Shown one piece after another: positions 33,707-40,355 of a stretch of 64,000 nucleotides of DNA. The position numbers and the translations under genes were made by a program. Origin of the DNA: an uncultured Gammaproteobacteria bacterium (GTDB lineage Bacteria; Pseudomonadota; Gammaproteobacteria; SZUA-229); assembly GCA_963803185.1 (NCBI GenBank), contig CAWDMF010000013.1, positions 12,067 through 76,066 of the forward strand, in the 5' to 3' direction. Under the pieces are notes generated by a model. It was given only the letters and a program-made list of their open reading frames with translations, was not told the origin of the DNA and did no database searches. Within the stretch, counting starts at the first letter, position 1. Each line of letters opens with the position of its first letter.

Positions 33707-34357
33707 CTATTTCTTCAGCTTTAACGGGTGTAACTGCTTGAGCAAGCCGGGTTCAGGTTCTTCGTCGTGGAGGTAACCTGGCGGCGGATAGATGGTCTCA
33801 CAAGTCCCCTCTTTGACCTCGGCCAATTCCCGCTGCGTCATGCAGACGTCGTAATTGCCAGGGCCACCATCCAGCTTGCCGTATCCGGGTCCATCCCACA
33901 ATACGTCAAAATCGCCCTCTCCGCCATAGAGCTGGTCGTCACCCGGCGCGCCAAACAGCCAGTCGTCACCGGGGCCGCCGTAAATGATATCAACACCGCG
34001 CGCGCCAAACAGGGAGTCAATGCCGGGGCCACCGCACAGGATGTCGTCCCCTGCGTCGCCGTGGACGACGTCGTTGCCAGGACCGGCGACGATGACATCA
34101 TTTTCGTCGCTACCCAGTATCAGGTCATGACCGGTAGTGCCCACACAAGTGGCTTTCTCGCCATGACAGAGCGGCACTTCGCTCAGGCCTGGCGGAAGAT
34201 AGGGGCACTTGATTACAGTATGAGCGGTCGTGTAGTCGGGGAAGGCTTCCTTGGTCACTTCGGGGCCCGCCGCCGTGGACATCGCGGCTAACGCGACGCT
34301 GATCGCAACAGCGATTTCGAAAAGACAAGAAACTCGGGATGATGATAAAACGCACAT
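33707..34357 (-). CDS. secreted RTX-like calcium-binding beta-roll protein (hemolysin-type GGxGxD repeats) with N-terminal Sec signal and Cys-containing flanks
   Basis: tandem nonapeptides GGPGIDSLF GARGVDIIY GGPGDDWLF GAPGDDQLY GGEGDFDVL; N-terminal hydrophobic signal, no C-terminal T1SS-type signal evident. Confidence 0.6.
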   Translation of the reverse strand: MCVLSSSRVSCLFEIAVAISVALAAMSTAAGPEVTKEAFPDYTTAHTVIKCPYLPPGLSEVPLCHGEKATCVGTTGHDLILGSDENDVIVAGPGNDVVHGDAGDDILCGGPGIDSLFGARGVDIIYGGPGDDWLFGAPGDDQLYGGEGDFDVLWDGPGYGKLDGGPGNYDVCMTQRELAEVKEGTCETIYPPPGYLHDEEPEPGLLKQLHPLKLKK

Positions 34358-34708: not shown

Positions 34709-36058
34709 TTAAATAACCAAAAAATAGCCTGAACCAACAGCAGCGCATGCAGCAATTACGGAAACAATACCCGCTTTATATCTAAACAGGGCAATAAACG
34801 CTGCCGCACCGATGAAAGCTGAAAACCACTCAAAGTGGCCATCAAAACCTTGCGGCCAAAGCACATGGTAAGCAAAAAAAGTGGCAAGATTAAGAATGAC
34901 ACCAACCACCGCTGCGGTTATGCCGGTTAACGGGGCCGTAAACTTAACATCATCTCTGGTCGCTTCAACAGCGGGACCACCTAACAAAATAAAAAGAAAA
35001 GAAGGTAAAAAAGTAAACAAGGTGGCAATGCCTGCGCCTGCCGCGCCAGCTAAAAGTAACGAGTCAGGTCCAAAAATTTCTTTTGTCCAGGCGCCAACAA
35101 AACCCACAAAAGCCACAACCATAATCAGCGGTCCGGGTGTGGTTTCACCCAGGGCCAGGCCATCAATCATCTGGCTTCCGGTTAGCCATTGATATTGCTC
35201 AACACCACCTTGATAAACATAAGGTAAAACCGCATAAGCACCACCAAAAGTCACCAGTGCGGCTTTAGTAAAAAACCAGCTCATTTGTGTAAGCGTGCCC
35301 TGCCAGCCGTAAGCATTGATCAACATGATCATTACCGCGCCAGCAATGAACAGACCTATCAAAGAAAAAACCAGAAACCGGCCCCACTTAAACTGTGCAT
35401 GTTCAGGTGCGGGTGTGTCGTCATCAATAATGGCAGGCCCGTATGTCTCCTTCGAGGCACCATGGCCTGCACCCGCTTTAAAATGCTCAGGCGAAACATA
35501 GGACCCTATATAGCCGATTAAACCTGCCGCTAATACAATGTAAGGAAAAGATATCTCAAAAGCAAAAATAGCAATGAAGGCCAGTACAGCCATGAGACGC
35601 AGCACATTATTTTTTAACGCCCTGGAACCAATGCGGTAAGCAGCAAAGACCACTATCGCGGTAACAGCTGGTTTAATGCCGTATAAAACACCTTCAACCA
35701 CCGGCACATCACCATAAACCAGGTAAATCCATGTCAGACCAATAAGAATAAAAAGTGACGGCAGCACAAATAAAACACCCGCAGCAATACCACCCCAGAC
35801 ACCATGCATTAACCAGCCGATATAAGTTGCCAGCTGCTGCGCTTCTGGTCCAGGCAGTACCATGGTGTAATTAAGAGCATGCAAAAAACGATGTTCAGAA
35901 ATCCACCGGCGCTTTTCTACCAGCTCCTGATGCATCATGCTTATCTGGCCCGCTGGTCCACCAAAACTGATAAATCCTAACTTAAGCCAGTACATAACGG
36001 CTTCGAAAAATGAAACGGGCTCAGGTTGCCCTGTTAATTCCTTTGTATTTGAAGCCAT
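34709..36058 (-). CDS. chrA: chromate ion transporter ChrA (CHR family, two-domain); ORF extends to GTG at 36112
   Basis: FISFGGPAGQISMM...LPGP and second-half FGGAYAVLPYV motifs. Confidence 0.8.
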   Translation of the reverse strand: MASNTKELTGQPEPVSFFEAVMYWLKLGFISFGGPAGQISMMHQELVEKRRWISEHRFLHALNYTMVLPGPEAQQLATYIGWLMHGVWGGIAAGVLFVLPSLFILIGLTWIYLVYGDVPVVEGVLYGIKPAVTAIVVFAAYRIGSRALKNNVLRLMAVLAFIAIFAFEISFPYIVLAAGLIGYIGSYVSPEHFKAGAGHGASKETYGPAIIDDDTPAPEHAQFKWGRFLVFSLIGLFIAGAVMIMLINAYGWQGTLTQMSWFFTKAALVTFGGAYAVLPYVYQGGVEQYQWLTGSQMIDGLALGETTPGPLIMVVAFVGFVGAWTKEIFGPDSLLLAGAAGAGIATLFTFLPSFLFILLGGPAVEATRDDVKFTAPLTGITAAVVGVILNLATFFAYHVLWPQGFDGHFEWFSAFIGAAAFIALFRYKAGIVSVIAACAAVGSGYFLVI

Positions 36059-36224
36059 TAGATTCACTCTGAAAAACAAGCCGTTATTGTACACAACAGG
36101 CAGTTGAGACACTATTTAAGGAAGAAATATATGATTAATCCGGGCATTGAAGTAAATAGTGCAGCCTAACTGTATAACGACACTTTATGCTCAGCGGCGG
36201 AGTGAAAATTCTTTATCATTCCTT

Positions 36225-36255: not shown

Positions 36256-36390
36256 AATCTTTTTAACAACCACAAAAGTTATTTTTCTATACTTAAGCCG
36301 AATTTAGCATGGCTATGCAATATCCGGCGTAAGCAGACAATAAATAGCACCATCATGATGCACTTCTGTTCCACAAATAATATCTAGAGA

Positions 36391-36700
36391 CATGGATCGG
36401 AAGCACCTTGCTGAGACCGTCAGCCACAGGGCAGGTGTTTTGCTCCTGCAAAACCTGCACTTCCACCGTCCGTGGTGGTCGGATGTGGCTGCCGAGCCCC
36501 CATGGATGGGTTTACGGCGTGTCTCAGCAAGGTGCTTACGGTTCATGTCGGTTGTAAACAATGCTTTTAAGCAGATACACTGGCACCGAGACATGAATTG
36601 TGTGTTACCGCCAAAGACACGCCGTAAACCCATCCATGGGGGCTCGAACCCCGCATCCATGCGTGATACGGTCTTTGGCGGTAACACGCAACCCATGCCT
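36391..36700. repeat. complex block of interleaved GC-rich inverted repeats (three or more overlapping hairpin pairs)
   Basis: catggatcggaagcaccttgctgagac / gtctcagcaaggtgcttacggttcatg; gagcccccatggatgggtttacggcgtgtc / gacacgccgtaaacccatccatgggggctc; tgtgttaccgccaaagac / gtctttggcggtaacacg. Confidence 0.7.
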
Positions 36701-36790
36701 CTCATATTTGTGAAACCGAAGTGCATCATGATGGTGCTATTTATAAATCAGACCCTGTCGCAGATATCAGGGTTAAAATATTTAATGATG

Positions 36791-37942
36791 CTATTCCAGG
36801 TGCTCCGCCAAAACGTTTCTTAACTGCTCAGCCAGGGCGGTACTGTATACATCACCATCATCATCGGTTGCTTGTGAATTTTCGGCATCTTTAACTTCGA
36901 TTTGAATAACACCACCCATGTCGGTGAACTCAAGACGATATTGTCGGTTTTTATTTAATGCAATATTTTTTTCATCTGAATCAGTGAATAATTGCATTAA
37001 CCAGCTGGATTGGGACAAATCATCATCGTCTTCTTCTATCTTAAGTTCTTCTGAAGAAATTTTGCTAACACCAAAGTTAATCATATTGTTGGCTTTATCT
37101 TCAATAATATTCTGCATTCGCATGCGATCCAGTGCACGCATCGACCGGCGCCAGACAAAATCCATACTGCCCTTCATGGTCAACGCGATTGTATTTGTGC
37201 TATCAATTTTTATCAGTGAACTATAAGGACGATAGTTTTCCAGCAATGCTACAGACTGCTCTTTGCTTAAACCGGCAAATACAGCCATGCGAGAAATAAT
37301 CTCGCGCTCCGCTTCTAAATTGCTTGGTTGCGATACCCAGATATATTCATCAGCAAATTCACCACGAACCTGGCGCTCGATTCTCGAATGTGCAACGTAT
37401 ATGCGCGTTTTACGGTCAAGATCAAAACGTTCAACACGGAGGCGAAATTTATCTTTTACGTCCGGTTCAAATTTCTGGAACATCGATCTGAAAAAGCCTT
37501 TTTCATCACCTAGCCGTTCTGTCCAGTCGGTTTCCATAAAACCAAGTAATGGGCGCTTCTCCACCAGCTCTATACCTTCTGCCTCCCAGAATTCAAGCAA
37601 TCTTGGCCACACTTTTTCGACCTCGTTATCAACTTCAATCCAGCTGCTGCCGGCAAAACTCACCATGCGTACGCCATCAAATTTCGGCGTGATCACGGTA
37701 TCCAGCTTGTTATTATCACGAAATTGCTGCAGCGCTTCTTCTGTAGGTTTCGCCACTCTAAGCTCATCAGCGGTATCCGGTTCGGTTAGATCAGGCGGCA
37801 CTTCCAGATTTTTATAATATTCTGCTCCCTGATAAACCGGGCGCTCATCACCACCGAACAGGCCACAGGATGCGCTGCTTAGTGCCATCAAAACCAAACC
37901 GAGATACTTCAACGTATCAAACATCGTACTATATAACCTCAT
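36791..37942 (-). CDS. bamC: outer membrane protein assembly factor BamC (NlpB lipoprotein)
   Basis: lipobox LSSASC after signal, downstream of dapA as in E. coli, 383 aa with acidic linker. Confidence 0.75.
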   Translation of the reverse strand: MRLYSTMFDTLKYLGLVLMALSSASCGLFGGDERPVYQGAEYYKNLEVPPDLTEPDTADELRVAKPTEEALQQFRDNNKLDTVITPKFDGVRMVSFAGSSWIEVDNEVEKVWPRLLEFWEAEGIELVEKRPLLGFMETDWTERLGDEKGFFRSMFQKFEPDVKDKFRLRVERFDLDRKTRIYVAHSRIERQVRGEFADEYIWVSQPSNLEAEREIISRMAVFAGLSKEQSVALLENYRPYSSLIKIDSTNTIALTMKGSMDFVWRRSMRALDRMRMQNIIEDKANNMINFGVSKISSEELKIEEDDDDLSQSSWLMQLFTDSDEKNIALNKNRQYRLEFTDMGGVIQIEVKDAENSQATDDDGDVYSTALAEQLRNVLAEHLE

Positions 37943-39087: not shown

Positions 39088-39459
39088 ATGAATACAACAA
39101 TGCAAACACAGTCAGAACGCCGTAGTTACAATCGTATCCCTTTTAATGCAGAAATTCTAATGCAATGTGGCCATGAGGAATGGAGCTGCAACCTGCTCGA
39201 TATTTCGCTCAAAGGCATGCTGGTAGAACCACCAGATAACCTTGACATCAACATGGACAACCCCTGTGGCATGGCACTATTTCTTGGTGAAGACATCTCT
39301 ATCCATGCAAGGGTAAATATCATTCGTAGCAGCGATGACAACTGGGGGCTGAAATGGTTACAGATTGACGACAACAGCTTGCAACATTTACGGCGTTTGA
39401 TTGAATTAAACACCAGCAACCCTGCAATGTTGATGCGCGAACTTTCAGAACTCGGATAA
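39088..39459 (+). CDS. PilZ domain protein (c-di-GMP binding)
   Basis: ERRSYNRIPF (RxxxR) and DISLKGMLV (D/NxSxxG) PilZ signature motifs; 123 aa. Confidence 0.7.
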   Translation: MNTTMQTQSERRSYNRIPFNAEILMQCGHEEWSCNLLDISLKGMLVEPPDNLDINMDNPCGMALFLGEDISIHARVNIIRSSDDNWGLKWLQIDDNSLQHLRRLIELNTSNPAMLMRELSELG

Positions 39460-39500
39460 TCTTTTATCCAGGCAGTATAATCTGCCCGTCACTGCCGTAA

Positions 39501-39543
39501 GTCCAGGGAATCTCAAATCAACTAAATTAGAGATTCCCTGGAC
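39501..39543. repeat. perfect 14-bp stem hairpin (gtccagggaatctc / gagattccctggac, 15-nt loop) 42 bp after PilZ stop, no U-tract
   Basis: seen directly. Confidence 0.6.
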
Positions 39544-39824
39544 GACACTTTCACAGCCAAACTTATCTCACCATAGCCACGCTGCCACCAGCAATGACAA
39601 TTATGTGCGGCTCGACAACCATTGCATGGTAGTGCCGAAAAGGAAATATCTACCCGTACTTCCTTGTACAACTGCGTTATCCTGCTGCCATCCATCCTGA
39701 CCATATGGCAAGGAGCGATTATCCACCATGGAGACCGGTTTTGCCTTTAATGTTTTGCGTTTAAGCATTTTTTGTTTACACTGTGCCCCTGTAAAACTGC
39801 TACCTGAAAATATCAAACAAAAAC

Positions 39825-40355
39825 ATGACTACTAAACTTGTTATCTCCGCACTGGGTGCTGACCGTGCCGGCATTGTCGACGAACTGAGTAATATTATTT
39901 ATACCCATGAACTCAATATTGAAGACAGCCGCATGACTGTACTCGGCGGGGAGTTCGCCATCTTACTTCTGGTCAGCGGCGAACAGTCTGCAATAGAGCA
40001 ACTACAGGCACAGGCAACGGACATTGAACAGGCGCTACAAATGCGACTACTGATCAAACCGACGACGGAGTCTGCACCTGCTGTCAACAGTATTCCCTAT
40101 TCTGTTGAAGTTGCGGCAATAGACCATCCGGGTATTGTGGGTAATATTTCCCGTTTTTTCTCCAGTCGCAATATTAATATCGTCAACCTGCAAACCGAAC
40201 GTTACGCTGCGCCGCATACCGGCTCACCCATGTTTGCCCTGCACATGACCATTGGCCTTTCTGCCGATACCAACATTGCACGGCTACGCGATGCTTTTAC
40301 CGAGGTTTGTGATGATCTTAACCTCGATGCCGAATTGAAAAAACATATAAAATAA
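39825..40355 (+). CDS. gcvR: glycine cleavage system transcriptional repressor (tandem ACT domains)
   Basis: LVISALGADRAGIVDELSNII and second ACT repeat; gcvR-bcp synteny divergent from dapA. Confidence 0.8.
   Translation: MTTKLVISALGADRAGIVDELSNIIYTHELNIEDSRMTVLGGEFAILLLVSGEQSAIEQLQAQATDIEQALQMRLLIKPTTESAPAVNSIPYSVEVAAIDHPGIVGNISRFFSSRNINIVNLQTERYAAPHTGSPMFALHMTIGLSADTNIARLRDAFTEVCDDLNLDAELKKHIK

Follow-up and report, generated by a model that had tools for sequence, protein, structure and literature searches.

A probable IS4-family MITE carrying two convergent TwoAYGGAY-like units in the palindrome downstream of bamC

Overview of the element

The GC-rich inverted-repeat block between bamC and chrA in the window (the whole stretch of 64,000 nucleotides that was analysed) very probably represents a non-coding 363-bp IS4-family MITE, which was inserted into the bamC palindrome and carries two mirror-image TwoAYGGAY-like units. 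The cargo consists of two convergent paralogous units of the TwoAYGGAY type, each with a basal stem of ~30 bp and two hairpins with C-AUGGAU-G loops. A preliminary description of the block is supported in part, and of the options that it offered the structured-RNA one fits best, the block being built from a motif of the structured-RNA type. TwoAYGGAY RNAs have formed an orphan family since 2010, and the locus offers one concrete vehicle by which it spreads, namely a 312-bp doublet with IS4-family ends, target duplications and an identifiable transposase family. The features of the block are collected in Table 1.

Table 1. Positions of the features in and around the element (window coordinates; a dot marks features to which no strand applies)
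Feature	Position	Strand	Remarks
Spurious 138-aa ORF	36313..36729	-	no family match above noise; wholly inside repeat structure
Host palindrome, left half (ATAAATAGCAC + CATCATGATG)	36340..36360	.	duplication copy 1 = 36351-36360
A-end terminal inverted repeat CACTTCTGTTCCACAAATA	36361..36379	+	decayed; 16/18 match to IS4-family end CACTGCTGTCCCACAAAT
Unit 1 (A-type, TwoAYGGAY-like)	36389..36549	+	inverted repeat; R1 core match
Spurious 143-aa ORF	36392..36823	+	no family match
Nested 51-nt module	36430..36480	-	inside unit 1 hairpin 1 loop; absent from L001
Spacer between convergent units	36550..36587	.	conserved in 312-bp doublet MITEs L164, L202, L208, L181
Unit 2 (B-type, TwoAYGGAY-like)	36588..36701	-	RF01731 and R1 matches; inverted repeat
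B-end terminal inverted repeat CACTTCGGTTTCACAAATA (- strand)	36705..36723	-	decayed; 14/18 match to IS4-family end
Host palindrome, right half (CATCATGATG + GTGCTATTTAT)	36724..36744	.	duplication copy 2 = 36724-36733

Inverted repeats and folding of the block

A repeat search of the window yielded four nested and overlapping inverted-repeat pairs between 36340 and 36744, which include A/A' (36389-36417 with 36521-36549; 29 nt, 90%), B/B' (36481-36524 with 36615-36658; 44 nt, 89%), C/C' (36588-36618 with 36671-36701; 31 nt, 87%) and an outer pair (36340-36379 with 36705-36744; 40 nt, 95%). The inverted symmetry that the preliminary description had made its touchstone is therefore present in four arm pairs, its own three among them, whereas its A' arm had been placed ~10 nt too far to the left and its limits of 36391-36700 were too narrow, since the outer pair had been overlooked together with the terminal inverted repeats and the target-site duplication. 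The A/A' and C/C' arms are the ~30-bp basal stems of the two units and B/B' is homology between the units, so that two convergent paralogous units with their own stems and shared homology account for the three arm pairs; the pairs are real, but what had been taken for interleaving is simply this arrangement. When both strands were folded, the block exhibited minimum free energies (MFE) of -230 and -226 kcal/mol, compared with ~-130 +/- 6 for shuffled sequences (z = -16 on both strands), and its G+C content is 0.53 against 0.35 in the flanking spacer. The alternative foldings that had been suspected were also observed, namely local folding of each unit and core-to-core pairing between the two.

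Terminal repeats, target site and IS4-family relatives

The element spans 363 bp including both ends (36361-36723), which corresponds to a canonical 312 bp plus the 51-nt module, and a single copy is found in the 64-kb window. Its B-end has its counterpart in those of L164, L202 and L208, and both cores lie ~81 nt from their own end, as in the 312-bp MITEs. Removal of the element and one CATCATGATG copy reconstructs an empty site in which TTGT follows a perfect palindrome of 32 bp, with the insertion point at the centre of this host palindrome, ~45 nt past the bamC stop codon. The split palindrome is most likely the dapA-bamC intrinsic terminator, and terminator-like half-sites face outward at both ends of the element. 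The window BamC has no exact-protein record and close homologues were used for the comparison, in which the more diverged L246 (BamC 86% identical) lacked the element and had a hairpin and T8 terminator in the corresponding place, while all closer relatives carry the element. The 10-bp CATCATGATG duplication is itself palindromic and could equally be a pre-existing repeat.

Elements of ~1.27 kb with a gene for an IS4-family transposase are delimited by the end CACTGCTGTCCCAYAAAT, and MITEs of 112-330 bp terminate in it as well, with 18/18 matches in the ends of the relatives. The transposase has DUF4372 and DDE_Tnp_1 domains and reaches 247 bits with NF033592, for which the cut-off is 115. CACTGCTGTCCCA ends are likewise shared by the 1.27-kb IS copies and many MITEs. 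A search of the window and the L001 loci with the IS4 transposase (tblastn) gave no match. Perfect 9-bp flanking repeats were observed for 13 of 32 MITE-size elements, 10-bp duplications occur in some IS copies, with 10 bp seen in L222 and L224, and some duplications agree with the symmetric hot-spot consensus of IS10, NGCTNAGCN, such as AGCTAAGCT in L187. Like IS10/Tn10 and other members of the IS4 family, the elements combine a DDE_Tnp_1 transposase with 9-bp target duplications, whereas the subgroup differs from IS10/Tn10 in its DUF4372 N-terminal domain, its CACTGCTGTCCCA ends and its duplications of 9-10 bp.

Different cargoes were observed between these ends. The 312-bp MITEs L164, L202, L208, L181 and L183 carry the same convergent doublet at different sites and with different flanks, L178, L131, L030 and L088 represent single-unit versions, and MITEs with IS4 ends but no unit also exist, which indicates that the units are not needed for transposition. 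Around the units of Microbulbifer and Marinobacter, IS4-type ends were absent and genus-specific termini were found instead; the MITE vehicle is thus lineage-specific and not a property of the whole unit family. An origin of the variable arms as host hairpins that had received a core was rejected for the doublet, because members of the element family share the outer arm ends. The closest parallels are the IS-derived MITEs R0 and R2 of P. fluorescens SBW25, whose inverted repeats agree with the ends of insertion sequences (Silby et al. 2009, PMC2718517); these are also short, non-coding and highly structured, with the terminal repeats of a full-length IS, target-site duplications, many sites and likely mobilisation in trans. 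The interior described here differs in that it is not a deleted IS remnant but two copies of a structured unit that is widespread independently and is also found without such ends.

Anatomy of the two units and the nested module

Read on the plus and the minus strand, respectively, unit 1 and unit 2 can be aligned over their whole length, and their arm sequences differ while complementarity is kept. In both units the two hairpins emerge from the basal stem, which comprises 29 bp in unit 1 (36389-36417 pairing with 36521-36549) and 31 bp in unit 2 (36671-36701 pairing with 36588-36618). The stem of unit 1 hairpin 1 is formed by 36423-36428 with 36484-36489, and its loop, AGGGAU in L001, is split by the 51-nt module in the window; the core of hairpin 2, CGAGCCCCCATGGATGG, occupies 36493-36509 with the AUGGAU loop at 36502-36507. 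In unit 2 the core lies at 36630-36646, and the loops of hairpin 1 (36655-36660) and hairpin 2 (36632-36637) both read AUGGAU on the minus strand.

The module, of which the boundary is uncertain by +/-2 nt owing to a GG repeat, contributes two hairpins on the minus strand, one with an AYGGAY loop (36463-36478, CCACC-ACGGAC-GGUGG) and one with a GGA tetraloop (36431-36458, loop AGGA). L001 lacks the module and is otherwise 311/312 identical, whereas the same module, in the matching position and antisense orientation and with a covarying stem, was observed in L057, L061, L074, L081, L115, L150 and L234.

A hairpin noted earlier as T-arm-like, GGGGCTCGAACCCC with flanking CATCCATG, does exist at ~36632-36662, but its likeness to a T-arm is an incidental alternative pairing. 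In its stem, which only B-type units have and which overlaps both conserved hairpins, the 3' strand of hairpin 1 pairs with the 5' strand of hairpin 2; each of the two CATCCATG words is one of the two CAUGGAUG loops of the unit 2 hairpins read in reverse complement.

Family membership and covariation

The Rfam search proposed in the preliminary description did return the TwoAYGGAY motif (RF01731; Weinberg et al. 2010, PMC2864571) for unit 2, over the whole model and with both AUGGAU loops aligned (36581-36708, minus strand, E = 0.0017), but its 36.1 bits fall below the curated gathering score of 43 bits. Unit 1 was not reported by this search, a whole-window Rfam scan with an E-value filter did not return the match, and neither close nor distant relatives (L164, L009 and others) were detected by RF01731, even in 500-nt searches. 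As the model misses the relatives, Rfam membership is not claimed, and the proposed equation with TwoAYGGAY draws on the architecture and one sub-threshold match. Weak Rfam matches of the hairpins to miRNA families and Ysr224 were discarded as generic long-stem noise.

A model (R1) built from 50 non-redundant gammaproteobacterial units, with the lineage of the window excluded, matched unit 2 at full length (36591-36698, minus strand, 94.5 bits, E = 1.7e-20, model positions 1-108) and the core of unit 1 (36465-36522, 35.5 bits, E = 3e-6, model positions 27-82); in unit 1 the 51-nt module interrupts what would otherwise be a match over the full length. The L001 orthologues scored 101 and 96 bits, with the module-free orthologue of unit 1 reaching 101 bits over the full length. 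Both window units thus match the unit family GACCGT...CGAGCCCCCATGGATGGGTTYACGGCGTGTC as defined here, unit 2 at full length and unit 1 in its core. A genome scan with the 17-nt core detected 119 loci in many gammaproteobacterial genera, nearly all with the same architecture.

In the 50-sequence alignment, 94.8% of the cells were paired, as compared with 63% when shuffled and ~42% when slid, and double-change cells numbered 648 versus 200. Covarying pairs amounted to 26/31 in the basal stem and 4/4 in hairpin 1, while the invariance of hairpin 2 in this alignment was forced by the search pattern. Counted without gaps, G.T pairs in the variable arms outnumbered A.C mismatches by 50 to 14 (p = 7e-6), and by 173 to 15 when counted in the MFE structures. 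This G.U-over-A.C asymmetry fits RNA and single-stranded DNA alike and does not discriminate between them.

The units share with TwoAYGGAY the two adjacent AYGGAY-loop hairpins on a common elongated basal stem, an intergenic, multi-copy occurrence with variable copy number and frequent doublets, the existence of variants with additional AYGGAY hairpins, and loops that match a CsrA-site model (PMC4333381). Apart from the sub-threshold score and the relatives missed by RF01731, they differ in that neither the 5' GMTBT repeats nor the 3' pseudoknot were seen here. An extended Pseudomonadota form has been described by Li et al. (preprint 10.64898/2026.09.22.753630), with doublets that are mostly divergent in Pseudomonas at a median of 249 bp, whereas the present doublet is convergent with ~130 bp between cores and lies enclosed by IS4-family ends that are flanked by a target duplication; the text of that preprint contains none of the terms 'MITE', 'inverted repeat' and 'target site'.

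Proposed mobility and RNA role

The element may have been mobilised in trans by an IS4-family DDE transposase recognising the CACTGCTGTCCCAYAAAT ends, and the window copy would be old and, given its decayed ends, has probably lost its mobility. The units are proposed to act single-stranded and on their own sense strand; since they are convergent, a transcript arriving from either side would meet a sense unit first, and the convergent doublet between IS4 ends would deliver a sense copy whichever way the element lands. Each sense unit would display two GGA-loop hairpins ~20 nt apart, a spacing suited to one CsrA dimer, and the AUGGAU loops match the CsrA/RsmA consensus CANGGANG, with CAUGGAUG present twice in unit 2. 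On the minus strand, which is the sense strand of bamC and chrA, the nested module, with its loops ACGGAC and AGGA, could supply two further GGA hairpins. Judged from these loops, the most likely activity of the units is CsrA/Rsm binding, either as a decoy or as local 3'-end control of the host transcript, an idea already put forward for TwoAYGGAY from an RMfam CsrA-site match (PMC4333381) and in the preprint 10.64898/2026.09.22.753630; stabilisation of RNA ends or termination might serve as a fallback activity, and B/B' core-to-core pairing would act as a competing fold that masks the GGA loops. CsrB/RsmY/RsmZ-type sRNAs are similar in their GGA-in-loop hairpins of the CANGGANG consensus, of which four occur on the minus strand of the window element, but here the element is multi-copy and mobile and has a long perfect basal duplex, a dedicated promoter or terminator was not found, and binding is predicted. 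A promoter scan found none in or next to the element, crude ORF calls at 67 family loci revealed no bias of unit orientation relative to the neighbouring genes, and both neighbouring genes of a separate 'naked' unit in L002 run antisense to it, so transcription of the sense strand is putative.

A broader reading, which is doubtful though worth stating, is that TwoAYGGAY units, rather than being passive RNA genes, form a self-spreading structured module that travels as doublets between IS4 ends and by naked insertion into terminator-hairpin loops of the host, seeding host 3' UTRs with predicted CsrA/Rsm sites as it goes; the units would also accept the nested antisense 51-nt module with its two GGA hairpins precisely within their own AYGGAY loops. 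If true, the units would constitute a mobile layer of post-transcriptional rewiring or a genomic parasite that titrates CsrA. Both a transposition assay and a CsrA-binding test are feasible with the 312-bp doublet as a defined substrate, and near-identical strains provide natural contrasts, namely inverted versus non-inverted elements and those with versus without the 51-nt module.

Alternative explanations

A rather improbable alternative to the MITE with RNA-type cargo is purely selfish DNA, in which an IS4-derived MITE would carry internal hairpins without any RNA role, the AYGGAY loops being just conserved transposon sequence and the complementarity of the arms being kept at the DNA level, for example by template-switch correction of quasi-palindromes or cruciform repair. 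Terminal repeats, target duplications, many insertion sites, the missing promoter and the unbiased orientation relative to genes all accord with it, and covariation in a DNA palindrome is by itself no proof of RNA structure. However, the strong G.T-over-A.C asymmetry in the variable arms is tied to unit orientation and is not predicted by maintenance of double-stranded DNA; the AYGGAY loops and stems persist with compensatory changes where transposon ends have decayed, such as in the B-unit of L247 (GUAC-AUGGAC-GUAU) and at the window's own ends (14-16/18); and since unit-free MITEs bounded by these ends exist, the units are dispensable for transposition. The same asymmetry suits single-stranded DNA as well as RNA, and the units might instead be self-mobile through a single-stranded intermediate in the manner of REPIN or IS200-like elements, the sense-strand structure being a DNA hairpin recognised by an HUH/RAYT-type enzyme and the IS4 ends an occasional vehicle. 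That explanation, distinctly unlikely, draws on the naked 134-nt unit in L002, which sits inside a host hairpin loop without IS4 ends and is absent at the orthologous site in L001 and the window, on units in other genera that lack IS4 ends, and on a fixed position relative to REP arrays, as reported for SBW25 (preprint 10.64898/2026.09.22.753630); yet the surroundings of the examined copies showed no HUH or RAYT gene, a conserved cleavage tetranucleotide was not identified, and the naked insertion in L002 has only an imperfect 9-bp flanking repeat (7/9). REP/BIME and REPIN elements are likewise extragenic palindromes that recombine readily and frequently lie at the 3' ends of genes, whereas the present units are 3-5x longer, with a ~75-nt conserved core (GACCGT...GTGTC) and no REP consensus, and differ from REPINs in that no RAYT was seen.

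The relatives also raise the very improbable case of an invertible regulatory switch, in which the 40-bp inverted repeats would flip the segment and alter the expression of chrA or bamC. In L001, a 97%-related strain, the whole element is inverted, its interior being 311/312 identical to the opposite strand while the flanks are 119/120 identical to those of the window, and both orientations were observed among relatives (L122 and L002 versus L001 and L247). Nevertheless, no promoter-like site was found inside the segment, the neighbours are chrA, bamC and dapA with no adjacent recombinase gene, the segment is nearly symmetric so that a flip changes little, and short-repeat recombination suffices as an explanation; the whole element may still flip through recombination within the flanking palindrome. 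What is left of the earlier options, namely a BIME-like REP cluster, a relic attachment site or tRNA fragment, or genuine overlapping genes, had been suggested by a GC-rich, palindromic block holding the T-arm-like GGGGCTCGAACCCC, and is hardly credible. A REP/BIME array would consist of palindromes of 20-40 nt with one consensus and alternating orientation, whereas no such short units are present and the block contains only two units of ~110 nt with a distinct, complex conserved core; ARAGORN detected neither tRNA nor tmRNA in the block and no integrase lies nearby; and overlapping genes are opposed by the lack of Pfam or NCBIfam homologues for the ORFs. The block gave no BLAST match to E. 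coli genomes, plasmids or phages, and a scan of viral contigs with the core gave none either.

Open reading frames and annotation

Both ORFs on the opposite strands are artefacts. As the preliminary description had proposed, they are by-products of palindromic DNA and not genes, and the significant protein homology that it had named as counter-evidence was found for neither in Pfam or NCBIfam, a HOK_GEF match at E = 0.069 being noise. For annotation, this means that 'genes' of 138-200 aa called over such elements are spurious. One of this kind has been called in the ENA contig behind L001. Metagenome contigs also tend to break at such elements.

Organization of the palindromic block

The block at 36340–36744 is housed in a 680-bp intergenic gap and reaches a G+C of 0.53 against 0.35 in the flanking spacer, in agreement with the preliminary description of a GC-rich block in an AT-rich spacer. 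The three inverted arm pairs reported there were recovered by repeat search with slightly corrected coordinates, along with a fourth, outer pair (table below), and folding of 36330–36755 on both strands gave energies about 95 kcal/mol below those of dinucleotide shuffles (z = −16). The 138-aa and 143-aa opposite-strand ORFs, previously considered non-coding, indeed displayed no significant family matches, and no tRNA was found in the block by ARAGORN.

Features of the locus, in window coordinates
Feature	Coordinates	Strand	Remarks
216-aa ORF	33707–34357	−	RTX/hemolysin-type calcium-binding repeats
Chromate-transporter gene	34709–36112	−	One flank of the gap
Outer arm pair	36340–36379 with 36705–36744		40 nt, 95%; repeat search
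A-end (left terminal inverted repeat)	36361–36379		Decayed, 16/18 matches
Arm pair A/A′	36389–36417 with 36521–36549		Repeat search
51-nt module	36430–36480		In hairpin 1 loop of unit 1; absent from L001
Arm pair B/B′	36481–36524 with 36615–36658		Repeat search
Arm pair C/C′	36588–36618 with 36671–36701		Repeat search
B-end (right terminal inverted repeat)	36705–36723		Decayed, 14/18 matches
bamC	36791–37942	−	Other flank of the gap; comes after dapA

The sole meaningful Rfam match within 2 kb around the block was TwoAYGGAY (RF01731) at 36581–36708 (−), which spans the full model and aligns both AUGGAU loops with its conserved loops, but at 36.1 bits (E = 0.0017) falls short of the 43-bit gathering score. 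Alignment of the left half (+) to the right half (−) revealed two paralogous, convergent units (unit 1, 36389–36549; unit 2, 36588–36701). The parts common to both run from a leader and GAGRCATGG through a variable 5′ arm, then GACCGT and hairpin 1, to CGAGCCCCCATGGATGGGTTTACGGCGTGTC, a likewise variable 3′ arm and lastly TTCATGTC. The block is thus a doublet, in which A/A′ and C/C′ are the basal stems of units 1 and 2, respectively, and B/B′ and the outer pair represent the homology of two facing units; the interleaving noticed earlier is real, with B/B′ reflecting inter-unit homology. The arm sequences differ between the units while complementarity is kept within each arm pair, including two G.U pairs in unit 1 and three in unit 2, each of which would become an A.C mismatch if the opposite strand folded. 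The 216-aa RTX-type ORF, unrelated to the element, adjoins a LolD-like ATPase and a MacB/FtsX-like permease that make up an ABC transporter pair.

An IS4-family MITE carrying the units

Two loci of the same Pseudohongiellaceae genome (L030 and L088) have about 270 bp in common, terminated by CACTGCTGTCCCATAAATC and its inverted complement, with 9-bp direct repeats outside. Scanning metagenomes with the end CACTGCTGTCCCATAAATC returned at least 120 loci, and among those listed the partner end lay either about 1.27 kb off (IS) or 112–330 bp off (MITEs). The 1.27-kb elements enclose an IS4-family transposase of 384–396 aa (NF033592, 247 bits with a cut-off of 115; domains DUF4372 and DDE_Tnp_1). 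Perfect 9-bp flanking duplications were observed for 13 of the 32 MITE-size elements among the listed loci, and duplications of 10 bp for some IS copies. Five MITEs of 312 bp (L164, L202, L208, L181 and L183) contain convergent doublets collinear with the window element, sharing its A-end, B-end, arm sequences and spacer at different insertion sites; the window element measures 363 bp end to end, equal to 312 + 51, and no transposase was found in the window. The window element is therefore a decayed IS4-family MITE with a convergent pair of TwoAYGGAY-type units. Full-length IS copies and some MITEs with identical ends are without units, indicating that the units are cargo and dispensable for transposition. 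Neither the RNA motif class nor the IS-derived MITE is new; what the literature searched does not describe is the two together, the inversion or the nested module reported below. The 1.27-kb IS (L187, L222, L224, L139 and about 12 more among L126–L245), with ends CACTGCTGTCCCAYAAAT and 9–10-bp target duplications, is apparently an uncharacterised insertion sequence, and has many MITE derivatives of 69–330 bp in marine and sediment metagenomes.

In a less likely rival reading, the units would move independently of such a MITE, perhaps as ssDNA. Two observations are compatible with it. A naked single unit of 134 nt that lacks IS4 ends (L002:2267–2400, in a related genome) is inserted in the loop of a host hairpin, GTCCAGGGAATCTC...GAGATTCCCTGGAC, with an ACT-domain gene on one side and a pilZ gene on the other, and is missing from the empty sites at 39450–39835 of the window and L001:2110–2495; the 9-bp repeat around it is an imperfect one (AATTACTAA / CATTAGTAA). 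The units of other genera likewise lack IS4 ends.

Conservation and covariation of the unit family

A 17-nt core scan covering one genome per species detected at least 119 loci, nearly all of those listed sharing the unit architecture, in Stenotrophomonas, Halieaceae, Rheinheimera, Marinobacter, Microbulbifer, Saccharospirillum, Pseudohongiellaceae and others. From a non-redundant alignment of 50 unit sequences (A3), with the lineage of the window excluded, RNAalifold predicted 41 pairs; paired cells amounted to 94.8%, against 63% when shuffled and about 42% with partners slid, and double-change cells to 648 against about 200. Covariation was observed for 26 of the 31 basal-stem pairs and all four pairs of hairpin 1, the invariance of hairpin 2 being imposed by the fixed search pattern only. 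G.T pairs exceeded A.C mismatches in the variable arms, both in an ungapped, structure-free count (50 and 14; p = 7e-6) and on MFE structures (173 and 15). The unit structure is therefore under selection on the single-stranded sense strand, which could be RNA or ssDNA. The A3 covariance model retrieved unit 2 at full length (94.5 bits, E = 1.7e-20), the core of unit 1 (35.5 bits, E = 3e-6) and both units of L001, the orthologous locus, at full length (101 and 96 bits), placing the units in a gammaproteobacterial family. RF01731 missed relatives of this family, 500-nt searches included, so the units are named TwoAYGGAY-type by architecture and curated Rfam membership is not claimed. One Microbulbifer elongatus genome (L037, L049, L051, L073) contains five copies that agree throughout the core and hairpin 1 (about 60 nt), except at one or two positions after hairpin 2, where two copies also carry an insert of 14 nt. 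Divergence is very uneven: the middle of the basal-stem arms differs by about 40% (estimated from the alignment), yet every pair remains perfectly complementary.

Predicted function of the units

The CsrA/RsmA hairpin consensus known from RsmE–RNA structural work is CANGGANG, with which the C-AUGGAU-G reading of both loops is compatible, and CsrA/Rsm binding is the predicted function of the units. Transcripts from either side encounter a sense unit first owing to the convergent layout; (−) strand RNA, the sense of bamC and chrA, would display four GGA hairpins, with core–core pairing between units as a competing fold. Three results count against an RNA role: scanning of the element revealed no promoter, unit orientation showed no bias relative to neighbouring genes across the family, and the naked unit of L002 is antisense to both its neighbours. 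Strong CsrA-site matches for TwoAYGGAY were reported by RMfam (PMC4333381), and a TwoAYGGAY preprint (10.64898/2026.09.22.753630) again raises the sponge idea and describes doublets, varying copy number and an expansion that it calls 'mobile-element-like'. The terms 'MITE', 'target site' and 'inverted repeat' do not occur in the text of the preprint, which mentions transposases once, regarding general intergenic-structure enrichment.

Insertion history and rearrangements

The element is bordered by ATAAATAGCAC-CATCATGATG at its left side and by CATCATGATG-GTGCTATTTAT at its right. Taking it out together with one CATCATGATG copy leaves a palindrome of 32 bp without a mismatch, directly before TTGT. 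Each half of the split palindrome scores as a terminator-like hairpin with a T-tract, and the equivalent place in L246 (BamC 86% identical), where the element is absent, harbors a GTGAC-ATG-GTCAC hairpin followed by T8, suggesting that the insertion most likely occurred at the centre of the bamC terminator. The element occupies the orthologous site in L247, L123, L002, L122 and L001, with BamC identity down to 85%, indicating an old insertion.

In L001 (BamC 97% identical), the element is exactly 312 bp (L001:5220–5531) and matches the window (+) strand at 311 of 312 positions apart from a single gap of 51 nt. Its flanks, in contrast, agree with the (−) strand at 119 of 120 positions, indicating that the whole element is inverted between the two. 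The end-specific variants move together with the inverted element, which places the exchange point either within the 21 nt of the flanking palindrome or at the extreme ends of the element. Both orientations are found among relatives, with the B-end towards bamC in L122 and L002, as in the window, and the A-end in L001 and L247. At L123:4243–4400 the core of a single unit is turned round with respect to the unit's leader and terminal repeat, suggesting that recombination between the basal-stem arms of about 30 bp can flip the unit core.

On the (−) strand the 51-nt module folds into two hairpins, one with an AYGGAY loop and one with a GGA tetraloop, the stem of the latter covarying. The module recurs in the same position and antisense orientation in unrelated taxa (L057, L061, L074, L081, L115, L150, L234), with versions in hairpin 2 in L002, L150 and L234. 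It could be gained or lost through gene conversion, with another copy as donor, or through insertion at a specific site. Metagenome contigs often stop at or within the elements, such as L122–L125 (150–300 bp past bamC) and many of L126–L245, and spurious ORFs are called across them, such as a 200-aa call at L001:5049–5651.
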